This document shows, one piece after another, positions 27,020 to 50,845 of a DNA stretch of 64,000 bases. Location of the stretch: assembly GCA_963732695.1 (NCBI GenBank), contig CAVTAP010000012.1, positions 95,601-159,600 on the forward strand, in the 5' to 3' direction. The position numbers and the translations under genes are program-made. The first letter of the stretch is position 1; each line of letters begins with the position of its first letter. The stretch is from an uncultured Actinomycetota bacterium (GTDB lineage: Bacteria; Actinomycetota; Acidimicrobiia; Acidimicrobiales; SZUA-35). The notes under the pieces are model-generated. The model was not told the DNA's origin. It searched no databases and was given only the letters and a program-made list of their open reading frames with translations.

Positions 27020-28207
27020 ATGGCCAAGCCGCTGGAGGGCATCAAGGTCCTCGACTTCACCCGGGTGTTGGCCGGCCCGTTCGCCACCCGCATCCTGTCC
27101 GACCTCGGGGCCGACGTGATCAAGGTCGAGCCGCCCGAGGGCGACATGACCCGCAACATCGGCAAGAAGATCGCCGGCATCTCGGGTTACTACACCCAGC
27201 AGAACGTGGGGAAGCGGTCGATCTGCGTCGACCTGCTCAAGTCCGAGGGCCAGGAGCTGATCAAGCGGCTGGTGGCCGAGGCCGACGTCGTCACCGAGAA
27301 CTACCGCCCCGGCGTGATGGCCGAGATGGGGATCGACTGGGACACGCTGCACGCCATCAACCCCCGGCTGGTCATGATGTCGATCTCGGGGTTCGGCCAG
27401 GAGGGCCCGGAGCGGGAGCGGGCGTCGTACGCCCCGATCATCCACGCCGAGACCGGGATCCTGCAGCGACAGGCGATGGTGACCGGGATGGACCGCCCGA
27501 TGGACCTCGCCCTGTCGGTGGCCGACACCACCACCGGCATGCACGGCCTGATCGGGCTGCTGGCTGCGCTCCACCACGCCCAGCGCACGGGCGAGGGCCA
27601 GCACGTCGACATGGCGATGATCAACGCCATGTTCTTCACCGACGACTACGTTCACCTGGCGGTGCACGGGTTGGAGGCCCAGGTGGCGGCGGGGCTGGTG
27701 TTCAACGCCACCGGCGGGCCGATCATGCTGGCCGGCGACGAGAAGTGGTTCTGGCGGGTGCTGAACACCCGCGCCGGGGTCGAGGACCCGACGCCGGAGG
27801 GGGCCGACCTGGAGACCAAGATCCGGCTGCGGCGGGCGGCGATCGACGAGTACCTCCTGTCGTTCCCCGACCGGGCGTCGCTGATCGCCAAGCTCAACGA
27901 GGTCAACCTGGCCTGGGGCGAGGTGAACGACGCCCGTACGGCGCTCGACCACCAGCGTTCGGTGGAGGGCCGCCAGGTGCTGGTGGACGTCGACGACCGC
28001 GACGGTGGCACCCGGCGCACCACCAATACGCCGTACCGGTTCTCCGGGCTCGACGCCGGCGTGTCCGGGGCGGCGGCCCATCGGGGCGAGCACAACTACG
28101 CTGCCGTGCTCGACTGGATCGACATCAGCGCCACCGAGCTCGACGCCCTCCACGAAGCCGGCATCCTGCTGCGCGACGACTCCGCCGAAGCCCCCGACCT
28201 CCGCTAA
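27020..28207 (+). CDS. CaiB/BaiF class III CoA transferase
   Basis: PLEGIKVLD, LGADVIKVE, NVGKRS, ENYRPG, ISGFG. Confidence 0.93.
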   Translation: MAKPLEGIKVLDFTRVLAGPFATRILSDLGADVIKVEPPEGDMTRNIGKKIAGISGYYTQQNVGKRSICVDLLKSEGQELIKRLVAEADVVTENYRPGVMAEMGIDWDTLHAINPRLVMMSISGFGQEGPERERASYAPIIHAETGILQRQAMVTGMDRPMDLALSVADTTTGMHGLIGLLAALHHAQRTGEGQHVDMAMINAMFFTDDYVHLAVHGLEAQVAAGLVFNATGGPIMLAGDEKWFWRVLNTRAGVEDPTPEGADLETKIRLRRAAIDEYLLSFPDRASLIAKLNEVNLAWGEVNDARTALDHQRSVEGRQVLVDVDDRDGGTRRTTNTPYRFSGLDAGVSGAAAHRGEHNYAAVLDWIDISATELDALHEAGILLRDDSAEAPDLR

Positions 28208-29200
28208 CGAAATTGCACGCCTATCTCGCGCTCAGCGCGAGTTAGGCGTGCAAGAAGCGGCGGCACATGTCGACCAGTCCCTGCGGATCGTCGACGTACA
28301 TCGACCACAGGATCTCCTGGATGTTCCAGCCTTCGGCCTTGGCCCGGTTGCGCTTGCGGTTGTCGCGCTCCCGTTCGGTGCGGCCGAAATGGAAGGCCAG
28401 CCCGTCGAGCTCCCACGCCTTCTTCCGTAGCGGCCAGGCCAGATCGGCCTGCATGATGAACGATCCGTCGGCGGCCAGGATCCGGTGCTCCAGCACCGGC
28501 TCGGGCAGGTCGTTGTCGACCAGCAGGTTCGACACCAGCCGGCTGAAGTCCGACAACGGCACCGTCCTATCGCCGAGCCGTATCTCCAGCAGCGTCCGCA
28601 GCTTGCCGCACCCGTCCCGGCCTTTGCGGGAGTGCCGGCTCAGCGTCCGGGCCATATCCGGCCAGGTGGTCAACCGCTGACGGATGGCCGACTCCACCAG
28701 ACGTTCCAACCGGCGCACGGTGACGACAGCACCACAGTCGAGCAAGGTCCGACTGATCCCCGTCACCGGGATGCCCCGGATCACGGTCTCGTCCCGCAAC
28801 GCCCATTGCGTGGTCAGATGGACGCGGGCCCTGGGCACGACGCTGTGGCTGCGGCGGGCGACGACGACCTCGGGGGTCGGGTGCTGGTACATGCCGAGCC
28901 CCCAGAGAGCTGCTGCCGATCGATGCGAGGCGACTCCGCCCGACGCCAAGCAGGCGCCAAGTAGACGCGACTCCCACGATTCGGCGACGACGGCGTGGCG
29001 ATAGACGCCCTTGCGCTCACGAATCCACGAACCAGCCGCCATGCGACGATGGATCTGGCTGGCGCTCATGCCAGCGGCGATCGCCTGGGAACGGGTGATC
29101 AGCCCGTACTGCCGCCGAAAGTGATGGTCGACGGTGTTCATGTACTTCCCCTTCTTGCACGTGTAAGTCGCGCTCAGCGCGACTTACACGTGCAATTTCG
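28208..29200. mobile_element. Candidate hairpin-bounded element carrying an AbiEi-like/DUF559 gene
   Basis: Terminal inverted CGAAATTGCACG; ~50-bp hairpins at 28208-28257 and 29151-29200; no TSD seen; mobility is inferred. Confidence 0.55.
28242..29141 (-). CDS. AbiEi-like wHTH domain + DUF559/Vsr-like endonuclease domain protein
   Basis: RQYGLITR.Q..GVY, SHRSAAALWG, IPVT..RTLLD, ADLAWP..ELDG..FH..D..RN..GW. Confidence 0.88.
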   Translation of the reverse strand: MNTVDHHFRRQYGLITRSQAIAAGMSASQIHRRMAAGSWIRERKGVYRHAVVAESWESRLLGACLASGGVASHRSAAALWGLGMYQHPTPEVVVARRSHSVVPRARVHLTTQWALRDETVIRGIPVTGISRTLLDCGAVVTVRRLERLVESAIRQRLTTWPDMARTLSRHSRKGRDGCGKLRTLLEIRLGDRTVPLSDFSRLVSNLLVDNDLPEPVLEHRILAADGSFIMQADLAWPLRKKAWELDGLAFHFGRTERERDNRKRNRAKAEGWNIQEILWSMYVDDPQGLVDMCRRFLHA

Positions 29201-29237
29201 GATGGTTGAAGGGGGAAGGGGCCGGCGGAGGCGGAAG

Positions 29238-47919: not shown

Positions 47920-49653
47920 ATGACGACCGCGACGCCACCCAAGGGCTCGTCGACCTCCAAAGGCACCGGCTCCGGTAGCGGTGCCGGCAAGGGGGCCGGC
48001 ACCGGCACCGGCAACGGCACTGGCAAGGGCTCCACCCGGGACTGGTCGGCCACCGCCGGCTCGGGAAGCACCTCCGCCGGGGCGGCGGCCTCGGCCCGCC
48101 GCTCGGGCACCACCCGCACCAACGCCGGCCGGGCCGCCGCCGCCCGCACCGGGGGCAAGGTGAGCGCGGCGCGGGGCAAGGCCGGCACGGCCGCCGCCGT
48201 GGCCGCAGCCGCCGCCCGCGCCGCCGAGGGCTCCACCACCGGATCGGCCCGCACCGCGGCCGGCAAGGCGGGGACCGACCAGCGCTCGGGCTCGAACCGG
48301 CCCCAGCCGGCCTCGACGGCCCTGGTCGTGGCCGAGCGCCCCGGCCTGCCGGTGGTCTCGGGGGCTACCGGGTCGGGCAACGCCACCAGCACCACGTCCA
48401 CGTCAACCACGTCGTCCACCTCCCCCTCGTCGTCCACCACCACCGATCTCGACGGGGCCTCGGTGGAGACGATCACCGTGGGCGAGGCCCGGGCCCGCTC
48501 CCGGTTCCGCAGCCCCGACGGGCGCCGCCTGCTCGTCACCCCCCGGCTTCGCCCCGTGGACGGCGAGCCGGCCCGGCCCCCGGCCGACGACACCGACGCG
48601 GCGGGTGAGCCGTTCGTGGCCCCCACCAACCCGGTGTCCAAAGCCGTCACCCGGCGCCGCTGGGAGCGCAAGGGGTTCGTGCCCGTCACTCCGGGTCGGG
48701 TCAAGATGCGCCACCGGATCCTGCCCCGCAGCGTGATCGGGATCGCCACCATGCTGCTGTTCTTCGGGCTCGGCGTGGGGTTCAGCGGTGCCGCCTTCTA
48801 CGCCTACTACGACCAGCGGCTGGCCCAGAACGAGGAGACCGTGAGCCGCTTCGTCAACGGCTTCGACAAGCAGTTCACCGATGCCGTGGGCGCCGTCGAC
48901 GAGCTCCGGGTCCAGGCCGTGGACGACATCCGGGCCGAGATGGTGCCGATCGAGGGCATCGTGGCCGACGCCAACGGCGTGTCCACCCTGCCGGCCTCGG
49001 TGGGGCCGTCGGTGTGGCAGCTGGAGACGAAGGACGAGGCCGGCAACCTGCTCACCGGGGCCGCCTTCGCCGTGCTGCCCCACGACGGCGGCACCGCGTT
49101 CGTGACCAGCTACTCGCTCGTCGCGGCGTCGACCACCGAGCCGGCGCCGGCCATCGAGCTGGTCAAGCGCACCCAGAGGATCCCGGCCCAGCTGTGGGCC
49201 TGGGACCCCGACCGTGACCTGGCCCTGGTGGTGGTCAAGGAGGTCATCCCTCCCCTGTCGCTGGCCAGCGACGTGGACCAGGTGACCGCCGTGGGCGGCC
49301 GGGTGTTCGCCATGAGCGGGGTGGGCGGCCAGGGCTCCACCGCCTCGCCCGGCACCCTGCTCGACCACTCCCAGTCGGGCCTCCAGCACACGGCGGCGGT
49401 GGGCACCCTGTTCCAGGGCGGCCCCCTCGTCACCGGCGACGGCCGGGTGATCGGGATGGCGTCGCTCGGCTACCGACCCAACGGGATCGACCCCGGCGAC
49501 GTCCGCCAGGCCCCCGACGTGGCTGCCCTGTGCGCCAGGATCCTGCACTGCGCCAAGGCGGCCGAGGTCATGACGGTGGACCTGAACACCGAGGCCCCTG
49601 CCGCCGGTACGCCCACCAACCCCGGCACCGAATCCGCTCCCGCCGGCGACTAG
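47920..49653 (+). CDS. Membrane-anchored trypsin-like (S1C) protein lacking catalytic His/Ser, long disordered N-terminus
   Basis: TM helix, coiled coil, DLALV, GGPLV..GRVIG; TSYSLV replaces TNxHV and FQGG replaces NSGG. Confidence 0.75.
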   Translation: MTTATPPKGSSTSKGTGSGSGAGKGAGTGTGNGTGKGSTRDWSATAGSGSTSAGAAASARRSGTTRTNAGRAAAARTGGKVSAARGKAGTAAAVAAAAARAAEGSTTGSARTAAGKAGTDQRSGSNRPQPASTALVVAERPGLPVVSGATGSGNATSTTSTSTTSSTSPSSSTTTDLDGASVETITVGEARARSRFRSPDGRRLLVTPRLRPVDGEPARPPADDTDAAGEPFVAPTNPVSKAVTRRRWERKGFVPVTPGRVKMRHRILPRSVIGIATMLLFFGLGVGFSGAAFYAYYDQRLAQNEETVSRFVNGFDKQFTDAVGAVDELRVQAVDDIRAEMVPIEGIVADANGVSTLPASVGPSVWQLETKDEAGNLLTGAAFAVLPHDGGTAFVTSYSLVAASTTEPAPAIELVKRTQRIPAQLWAWDPDRDLALVVVKEVIPPLSLASDVDQVTAVGGRVFAMSGVGGQGSTASPGTLLDHSQSGLQHTAAVGTLFQGGPLVTGDGRVIGMASLGYRPNGIDPGDVRQAPDVAALCARILHCAKAAEVMTVDLNTEAPAAGTPTNPGTESAPAGD

Positions 49654-49661
49654 GGGCCGGT

Positions 49662-49711
49662 CCGAAATGAGGACCTGAGGTGCGCTGAGCGCACCTCAGG
49701 CTCCTCAGAAT
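49662..49711 (+). repeat. Solo hairpin of the CGAAAT-stem-GCGCTSAGCGC-stem-AGAA family
   Basis: ccgaaat gaggacctgaggt gcgctgagcgc acctcaggctcctc agaat; between convergent genes. Confidence 0.8.
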
Positions 49712-49720
49712 GGGGTCGGA

Positions 49721-50845
49721 CTACTTCGACAGGCCCATGAAGCGGCGGGCGTTGGTGTAGGTGACGTCGCCGAACAGCTCGGGCTGGGGGAGCTTGGCGA
49801 ACGTCTCCTCCAGCTCGCCCAGGGCGCCGGGGAACGTGCAGTCGTAGTGGGGGTAGTCGGAGCCCCACACCACCGTGTGGGCCAGGCCCATCTCGGCCAC
49901 CTGGGCGAACGCCTCGCCCTCGCCCGCCTCCATGGTGACGAAGCACTGCTGGGCGAAGATCTCCGTGGGGTCGCGCTTCAGACGGGGCACGAGGTGGCCC
50001 ATCGACTGCTTGTGGTCGTCGAGGCGCTCCAGCCAGAACGGCAGCCAGCCCAGGCCGCTCTCGAAGAACCCGACCCGGAGCCGGGGGTGGTCGTCGAGGA
50101 TGCCGCTGGCCACCACCTCCATCACCGAGGCCATCTGCTCGAACGGGTGGCACACCATGTGGACGTAGAACTGGTTGGTGTAGCGGGTGCGGGCGAAGCT
50201 CGTCATCTTGGAGCCGAAGCTGCCGTGGACGGCCACCGTGAGGTCGTGGTCTTCCGCTGCCGACCACACCCGATCCATCTCCGGTGAGTACAGCTCGAGG
50301 CCGTTGTAGCGCTCGGGGCGGAAGGTGAGGCCGGTGAAGCCGTGCTGGGCCAGGAAGGCGATCTCGGCCACGGCGGCGTCGACCGACTGCAGGGGGCAGA
50401 CCCCCATGCCGTACAGCCGCTCGGGGTTCACGGCGATGAAGTCGGCCATCCAGCGGTTGTAGGCCCGGGCGTTGGCGGCGGCCACGTCGGGCCGGGTGAT
50501 GTCGCCGGCCAGCAGGTCGAGCGAGGGGAACATGAGGGCGGCGTCGAGGCGCTCGGCATCCATCACCTCGAGCCGTTCGGCCGGGTCCCAGCTGCCGGGG
50601 AGGATGTCGTCCCAGGTGATGTCGGGGTTGGCGTAGGAGCCGGGGATGCAGGCCGGGGCGGCCGACGTGCCCGTTGCCTTGCCCTCCACGAACAGGTTGT
50701 CCCTCCCGGCATCGGTGAGGCCCGCCTGCAGGATCAGATCCCGGTACTCGGGGTCGCAGTACTCGGTCCACACCGACGTCGGCTCGCAGATGTGGGCGTC
50801 GGCGTCGTAGACCGGTGTCCGGTCCTCAGTCTTGATCGGTCCCAT
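49721..50845 (-). CDS. Amidohydrolase_2 family protein
   Basis: DADAH, AYNRW, VH, ESGLGW, GSDYPH. Confidence 0.92.
   Translation of the reverse strand: MGPIKTEDRTPVYDADAHICEPTSVWTEYCDPEYRDLILQAGLTDAGRDNLFVEGKATGTSAAPACIPGSYANPDITWDDILPGSWDPAERLEVMDAERLDAALMFPSLDLLAGDITRPDVAAANARAYNRWMADFIAVNPERLYGMGVCPLQSVDAAVAEIAFLAQHGFTGLTFRPERYNGLELYSPEMDRVWSAAEDHDLTVAVHGSFGSKMTSFARTRYTNQFYVHMVCHPFEQMASVMEVVASGILDDHPRLRVGFFESGLGWLPFWLERLDDHKQSMGHLVPRLKRDPTEIFAQQCFVTMEAGEGEAFAQVAEMGLAHTVVWGSDYPHYDCTFPGALGELEETFAKLPQPELFGDVTYTNARRFMGLSK

Follow-up and report, generated by a model that had tools for sequence, protein, structure and literature searches.

A solitary hairpin between convergent genes as a member of a REP-like palindrome family with a putative nuclease partner

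What is a hairpin doing in the short gap where two genes run head-on into each other? The question is posed by positions 49662-49711 of the stretch of DNA that we analyzed, 64,000 nucleotides from an uncultured member of the Acidimicrobiales, referred to here as the window. The genome that contains it (G000) is 7.46 Mb long, lies in 26 contigs, has 71% G+C and is 92% complete. REP-like palindromes (from repetitive extragenic palindromes) are among the commonest unexplained repeats of bacteria, and GTAG and CGTC tags make up the feet of REPs. To our knowledge, the RAYT transposase is the only known partner enzyme of REPs, and it is missing from many bacteria rich in repeats. REP/REPIN elements with their RAYT transposases are reportedly the subject of work by Ton-Hoang in 2012. 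The reading that we consider best is that our hairpin belongs to a REP-like family of ~55-nt intergenic palindromes, the partner of which is a nuclease and not a RAYT.

The hairpin and its spacer

The hairpin is a solo copy of a palindromic repeat and has no strand of its own. It runs from a foot, CCGAAAT, through a 13-nt 5' arm, the centre GCGCTGAGCGC and a 14-nt 3' arm to the tail AGAAT. On its left is a gene for a protein with a trypsin-like peptidase domain (Trypsin_2; 47920-49653, forward strand), the stop codon of which falls 8 nt ahead of the hairpin; on its right is a convergent gene for an amidohydrolase (Amidohydro_2; 49721-50845, reverse strand). The two convergent stop codons are 67 nt apart (spacer 49654-49720, likewise assigned to neither strand); the hairpin takes up most of this spacer, the outer, G+C-rich letters of which pair around it. 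Two further exact matches to the 11-nt centre are present in the window, at 28228-28238 and 29170-29180, making three in all. The first-pass annotation had noticed that the solo hairpin has the foot CCGAAAT, the centre GCGCTSAGCGC and the tail AGAA in common with two hairpins that frame the open reading frame 28242-29141, and that its stem differs from theirs yet is self-complementary with one bulge (arms of 13 and 14 nt, against other arms of 14 nt in the gene-framing pair). Both observations hold. The bulge reflects one G of the family consensus that is missing from the 5' arm, where AGGAGCC has become AGGACC. A metagenome contig from run X5 carries the hairpin with the 'missing' G restored, after the G at 49673.

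As RNA, the spacer folds with -44.6 kcal/mol on the forward strand (z -6.3) and -39.0 kcal/mol on the reverse strand (z -5.8), and not one of 200 shuffles was as stable on either strand. Stems this stable on both strands would suit the view that these are plain terminators or RNA-stability hairpins, held in place by selection without any protein partner, their framing of a nuclease gene being a by-product. We regard this as very unlikely. In having a strong, G+C-rich stem where convergent genes end, the hairpin is indeed like intrinsic terminators, including the tail-less terminators of actinobacteria, but the stem is followed by a T tract on neither strand (AGAAT on the forward, ATTTCGG on the reverse), and the hairpin is one of a conserved sequence family with an unpaired foot and tail that a terminator does not need. 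A scan of 49400-50000 for terminator and promoter consensus returned no terminator-like sites. Nor did Rfam match any family on 49500-49900, where the best score was 19.7 bits (mir-1203, E 0.96) against a gathering score of 100. In six RNA runs, the fraction of sampled words found was 0.04-0.07; contigs from run X15 cover parts of the region, but they reveal neither ends nor strand. A side role of the stem at transcript 3' ends is plausible; the convergent position fits a terminator, but the T tract is absent. Once inserted, the stem would probably act, as a secondary and putative effect, on both convergent transcripts at their 3' ends.

A dispersed family and its changing sites

The family was defined by a covariance model, R1, based on an alignment of 33 canonical copies (A1). 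It matches the solo hairpin with 62.2 bits and a genome-wide E of 3.0e-14 at C12:145261-145314 of G000, which is 49661-49714 of the window. That the solo hairpin pointed to a dispersed family was borne out by scanning the whole of G000, in which 138 matches on both strands reduce to 73 distinct loci, 68 of them at E <= 1e-5, of a palindromic unit of ~55 nt. As with REPs, the element is a short palindrome in many copies, 64 of the 73 being intergenic. Near-perfect, odd-centred palindromes of 19 bp number 49 in G000, and 20 of these have the GCGCTSAGCGC centre. The exact centre occurs 78 times, about 50 times within hairpins with the same foot; composition arithmetic gives an estimate of ~28 chance occurrences.

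The stems fall into three classes. Class I begins TGCACG, class II contains GCGCGTCC, and class III, to which the solo hairpin at 49662-49711 belongs, contains AGGAGCCTGAG; by a simple motif rule, the 73 copies split into 44 of class III, 27 of class I or II and two others. Among 59 gapless copies, the letters C-C-G-A-A-A-T-T of the foot are kept in 42-53 and the letters A-G-A-A of the tail in 46-51, and the flanking letters are rich in C 5' of the repeat and in G 3' of it. The first-pass annotation had named foot and centre among the conserved determinants. The foot has kept that place, and together with the tail it is the best-kept part of the repeat; the centre has not, being exact in just 40 of the 73 copies (20 with G and 20 with C as the middle base) and covarying as a paired stem in many class III copies. 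The ends are of the types AAAT/AGAA in 44 copies, TTCT/AGAA in 12, AAAT/ATTT in 12 and other in five, which puts the mixed AAAT/AGAA type modestly above what chance combination of ends would give (chi-square 5.9). Pairing extends to 90.6% of the cells of A1 (71% in shuffles). Both partners have changed in 13 of its 18 pairs, although most of these double changes are differences among the three stem classes and therefore represent few events. Template switching inside palindromes could be an alternative source of the complementarity of the arms, without selection.

Where do the copies sit? According to a crude gene caller based on GC3, which gave 5598 genes and a coding share of 81%, 34 of the 73 copies lie between convergent genes, 26 between tandem and four between divergent genes, and nine are placed 'inside' genes, probably through errors of the caller. 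The background of gaps of at least 40 nt is 709 convergent, 1977 tandem and 912 divergent (n=3598). Convergent gaps are thus enriched (34/64 intergenic copies against 709/3598 gaps, p 3e-9) and divergent gaps depleted (4/64, p 8e-5). A copy is typically separated from a stop codon by 0-15 nt, close up against the 3' end of a gene. This placement and the convergent enrichment count in favor of plain terminators, as does the presence in G000 of other close pairs of R1 hairpins on either side of ordinary metabolic genes. The nuclease gene discussed below is thus not alone in being framed, but it almost always is. The foot is on the strand of the genes in 15 of the 26 tandem gaps, so there is no rule of orientation. 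None of the 73 loci forms an inverted doublet, in which the family differs from REPINs; the closest pair is the two gene-framing hairpins, 942 nt apart, and the next closest pairs are 1.7-2.5 kb apart. At C19:11822-15591 of G000, three copies lie 1.7-2.0 kb apart between amidohydrolase, gluconolactonase-like and formyl-transferase genes.

The family is dispersed, it is confined to one lineage, and its copies come and go at orthologous sites. Our comparison panel comprised 41 genomes including G000, all MAG-grade except G009. R1 matches occur in five of them: G000, G004 (at least 136), G005 (at least 102), G007 (at least 84) and, weakly, G009 (five weak matches). The model did not find the family in the eight remaining congeneric genomes, nor in 28 further genera.

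The site of the solo hairpin (49662-49711) is filled in G004 and G005 and empty in G007, where the spacer is missing and the stop codons of the two genes overlap in GACTAGTCC. The identities of the flanking genes set G007 outside the other three genomes (92.9-93.9% against 94.7-95.8%, and 78% against 90%), and so an insertion is the simplest history. The smallest insert, that of G004, extends from foot to tail, with a stop codon immediately on either side. A DNA metagenome contig from run X1 joins 49631 to 49731 through 19 other letters, and hence is without the hairpin; it has no differences from the window over 275 nt of left flank and eight over 338 nt of right flank. In a second metagenome state, from run X5, 62 other letters replace the hairpin. 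Presence and absence at this junction, a comparison that the first-pass annotation had suggested, are both found: the hairpin is missing in G007 and the X1 contig and present in G004 and G005. For the spacer from 49631 to 49731, the metagenomes hold three states: empty (X1), hairpin with the extra G (X5) and 62-letter replacement (X5).

We also surveyed 40 hairpin loci of G004, G005 and G007, a sample from which the gene-framing copies and the 49662-49711 site were excluded on purpose. Thirty-one are syntenic in G000, and eight of those, at six sites, are empty there. The site C8:343057-343095 (orthologs L105, L117 and L156) holds class II in G007, class I in G005 and class III in G004, and in G000 no hairpin but a retained, foot-like GGCGAAACT. 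In G004 and G005, the upstream open reading frame at this site enters the hairpin, and its stop codon lies inside the stem. C12:199416 has class II in G007, class I in G005 and nothing in G000. C4:86863 is filled in G007 and G004 and empty in G000 and G005; G000 retains the tail with its G-rich flank, and from the letters that remain its state looks like a deletion. Some of the empty sites in G000 look like deletions between short repeats, which are possible for any palindrome without an enzyme. Among orthologous copies, the middle base of the centre differs and the foot keeps its side. The junctions of seven filled/empty sites show no constant target-site duplication. In presence/absence polymorphism, and in being small non-coding inserts, the hairpins resemble MITEs, from which they differ in that the entire element is one palindrome and that neither separate terminal inverted repeats nor a consistent target-site duplication is seen. 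An origin of the outer G+C-rich helix as a palindromic copy of the target flank was considered and rejected, the junctions having no such pattern.

The gene between two hairpins

The two hairpins that share their ends with the solo copy frame a gene for a protein of 299 aa, 28242-29141 on the reverse strand. Both are of stem class I. One is at the 3' end of the gene (28206-28260, forward strand, R1 E 3.0e-15), and the stop codon of the gene falls within its 3' arm; the other is just upstream of the gene (29148-29202, reverse strand, R1 E 3.3e-18), and its tail, AGAAGGGGAAG, runs into a purine-rich stretch a few nucleotides ahead of the ATG and looks like a ribosome-binding site. Feet point outward and AGAA tails inward. 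The neighbors are a CoA-transferase gene (CoA_transf_3) and an FtsX permease gene (FtsX/MacB_PCD). The nuclease gene is alone between its hairpins, with no gene for an AbiEii nucleotidyltransferase toxin beside it.

The protein is made of two parts, an AbiEi-like winged helix (residues ~1-190) and a PD-(D/E)XK nuclease domain of the Vsr/DUF559/I-Bth0305I kind (residues ~200-299). Pfam AbiEi_4 matches residues 3-48 (E 7.6e-11), and MTES_1575 matches residues 243-291 below threshold (E 0.0038); DUF559 in Pfam and the whole of NCBIfam gave no match to the 299-aa protein. An AlphaFold2 model has a mean pLDDT of 91.2. With Foldseek, the ~190 N-terminal residues of the model match the AbiEi antitoxin 6y8q (E 1.4e-6) and Rv2827c (1zel), and the last 100 residues match the catalytic domain of I-Bth0305I (3r3p, probability 1.00, TM 0.69) and Vsr (1vsr, 1cw0). 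Five residues, E218, D233, D246, H251 and D260, are invariant across 36 homologous sequences. By predicted fold and by these conserved acidic and histidine residues, the protein is a Vsr/DUF559-like PD-(D/E)XK nuclease. The label 'DUF559' given by the first-pass annotation is right at the level of the clade, as Vsr, DUF559 and 3r3p are placed together in clade 58 of the PD-(D/E)XK enzymes in Steczkiewicz 2012 (PMC3424549), although Pfam gives no DUF559 match here. Taylor 2011 (PMC3239194) describes I-Bth0305I as an EDxHD homing endonuclease. In fold and in the AbiEi_4 motif, the N-terminal part is like the type IV toxin-antitoxin system AbiE; the differences are that no AbiEii toxin gene is adjacent and that a nuclease domain is fused to the C terminus. 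From I-Bth0305I and Vsr, the gene differs in lying outside any intron or intein and in having no adjoining cytosine methyltransferase gene in the window.

Gene and repeat go together. Homologs of the protein at E <= 1e-10 occur in 29 of the 41 genomes, and orthologs of at least 61% identity only in those that bear the family: G004 (79%), G007 (75%), G005 (91/88%) and G009 (61%). The first-pass annotation would have been contradicted by copies spread equally over genomes without the nuclease family; the copies are instead restricted to five of 41 genomes, precisely those with an ortholog (61-91% identity). Every ortholog adjoins a family hairpin, on both sides in all but G005, in which the ortholog is in two pieces (L045/L071) and the downstream hairpin is degenerate, yet the genome has its at least 102 R1 matches; G005 is a natural case for asking whether the family decays once the gene is lost. 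The framing stems are of class I in G000 and G005 and of class III in G004 and G007. In G000, G004, G005 and G007, the gene adjoins the same FtsX gene, so it is one inherited locus and the co-occurrence counts as one event, not four. A search for an empty cassette junction found that the CoA-transferase and FtsX genes are not neighbors in five more distant congeners. In G009, the ortholog has a different gene context and is framed by a fourth type of stem with the same centre, and this variant is itself dispersed over at least 41 distinct loci (40 of 48 candidates scored).

Three readings of this pairing have to be weighed. In the first, the palindromes are duplex binding sites of the winged-helix part: the upstream copy would autoregulate the gene, the dispersed copies would be additional or decoy sites spread by another route, and the nuclease domain would serve an unrelated task such as repair or defence. 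There is something to be said for this. AbiEi binds inverted repeats in its own promoter, and the N-terminal two thirds of our protein match the AbiEi fold and Pfam AbiEi_4; the hairpin at 29148-29202 ends a few nucleotides ahead of the ribosome-binding site and ATG; and the palindromes are near-perfect, as sites for a dimer would be. What such an operator leaves unexplained is the further copy at the 3' end of almost all homologs, the preference for gene 3' ends over promoters (4/64 divergent), and insertion, loss and replacement of one class by another at orthologous sites, and the invariant nuclease residues would need an explanation of their own. We consider this reading unlikely.

In the second, the gene is a free-standing cassette of the homing type that invades palindromes, the solo hairpins being its targets or leftovers and not its passengers. 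The centre of a solo hairpin would be cut and repaired from a framed donor, leaving a full palindrome on each side. The best structural match of the nuclease domain, 3r3p, is the catalytic domain of a homing endonuclease, and the orthologs in G009 and other MAGs lie in different gene contexts, both of which would suit such a landing pad. But there is only one copy of each gene type per genome, the gene is syntenic in four genomes of the clade, and the arrival of solo hairpins at naive sites, 49662-49711 for example, goes unexplained. The end types also speak against it: the mixed AAAT/AGAA type of 44 of the 73 copies is one whole end of the cassette, and the AAAT/ATTT type that loss by recombination would produce accounts for just 12 of 73. 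This second reading seems improbable to us. An origin of the solo copies as remnants of recombination between the two hairpins of the gene was rejected for the majority, given their mixed foot types.

The third reading is the one that we prefer, in which the nuclease handles the repeat. That the family is specifically partnered with the single-copy gene 28242-29141, and that relatives of the gene carry cognate hairpin families of their own, is shown; that the nuclease mobilizes the hairpins, which would make the solo hairpin 'non-autonomous' in the sense of the first-pass annotation, we infer from the association. The protein would recognize the hairpin through the conserved foot, tail and top of the stem by means of its winged helix, and the Vsr-like domain would cut at or near foot and tail. 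Cutting would then lead to hairpins being copied into, replaced at or removed from the 3' ends of genes, and to stems being swapped at sites that retain a foot or tail. We give this mechanism slightly better than an even chance. It would parallel the action of RAYT transposases on REP/REPIN elements, with an unrelated enzyme. Counting against it, three of nine paralogs and one of 13 orthologs are without a matching pair of hairpins.

The parallel with REP/REPIN elements and their RAYT transposases, as set out in Nunvar 2010 (PMC2817692) and Bertels & Rainey 2011 (PMC3116915), extends to a foot that is conserved and unpaired, to copy numbers in the tens at the ends of genes, to a single-copy gene, inherited for the most part vertically, between two inverted copies, and to a cognate repeat for each gene lineage. 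The enzyme differs, an AbiEi-like winged helix with a Vsr-like PD-(D/E)XK domain here against an HUH Y1 transposase there. Could the hairpins nevertheless be classical REPs moved by a RAYT? They are short extragenic palindromes with a conserved foot and many copies, as such REPs would be, but the Y1 transposase (PF01797) was not found in G000 (92% complete), G004, G005 or G007 by a search that was positive in six of 14 known genomes as a control. The foot is CCGAAAT, accompanied by a second conserved end, AGAA, against the GTAG and CGTC tags named for REPs in PMC3733652, a survey of REPs which, in the part available, does not mention actinobacteria, the hosts here. We regard a RAYT as exceedingly improbable.

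Relatives with hairpins of their own

G000 encodes eight further paralogs of the 299-aa protein at 29-43% identity. Counting all nine genes, six have a hairpin of their own on both sides, two have one upstream only and one has none; besides 28242-29141, the framed AbiEi/Vsr-like genes are C1:71893-72837, C25:59611-60480, C17:340745-341743, C9:184576-185523 and C7:720734-721627. The hairpins of three other paralogs, those on C1 and C25 among them, are dispersed over ~10-25 further loci each. One genome thus holds several gene-plus-repeat pairs.

How specific is the framing? We scored local alignments between the 400-nt flanks of each gene and compared them with 600 random genes of similar length. 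A score of at least 20 was reached by six of nine paralogs and three of 600 controls, and a score of at least 25 by four of nine paralogs and no control. The level that none of the 600 controls reached was also attained by 11 of 13 orthologs, which is too specific for hairpins that are plain terminators; with a hairpin sequence proper to each protein lineage as well, the flank statistics put the idea of 'no partner' under strain. Sharing of exact 12-mers between flanks placed four of eight called paralogs within the top 53 of 5564 genes, and missed the paralogs on C25 and C7, as repeats were imperfect and a start was wrongly called; it was too crude a measure, and the local-alignment score was used instead.

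The pattern is found beyond G000. In other MAGs, we located 15 orthologous loci at 54-91% identity, of which 13 have both flanks present. Twelve of these 13 have a matching hairpin on each side, differing in sequence from lineage to lineage and with A/T-rich feet; the sole unframed one is the G005-type locus. In a second subfamily, five of eight loci have a flank score of at least 24. The C1 paralog as query retrieved one related locus, which is truncated. Framing hairpins are also dispersed in three other MAGs, at 12, 7 and 16 further loci, so that with G009 cognate hairpins are dispersed in all four other genomes tested.

The finding points to a second partner of REP-like repeats, unrelated to the first: a winged helix joined to a Vsr-like nuclease, with cognate repeats in several lineages. 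The wider proposal is that AbiEi-Vsr nucleases are a second class of repeat-keeping enzyme, unrelated to RAYTs and widespread in Actinomycetota, by which lineage-specific hairpins are kept, copied and swapped at the ends of genes, with foot and tail as fixed points of attachment. We put this at somewhat short of an even chance. It would explain the occurrence of three stem classes at one site in three sister genomes. Were it true, it would be a testable answer to the origin of such repeats in high-G+C Gram-positive bacteria, it would describe a compact protein that recognizes structured DNA with a short sequence tag, and it would give a function to a large family, of which 8000 scored candidates yielded at least 1396 homologs at E <= 1e-5 and the members of which, where named at all, are called 'AbiEi family antitoxin domain-containing protein' or hypothetical. 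In annotation, family hairpins should not simply be taken as terminators. A literature search that did not extend to subscription journals and supplements found no account of a nuclease gene with dispersed palindromes of its own on either side; a gene framed in this way by its own palindromes has so far been described otherwise only for an unrelated class of enzyme, the RAYTs.

Two minor observations concern the hairpins of the relatives. In L137, a public MAG record, a C25-type homolog has 93-nt inverted ends (347-439 and 1494-1587) made of two hairpins, with a score of 77.5, and these look like the ends of an insertion sequence. G000 also contains a longer type of palindrome, which has the GCGCTSAGCGC centre, other stems, no CCGAAAT foot and outer arms with GGTTCGAACC; examples outside the window are C1:52326, C4:309466, C8:127178 and C21:584982. 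The GGTTCGAACC outer arms resemble a 90-nt hairpin, with ~14 further copies, that lies upstream of the C26:327798 paralog.
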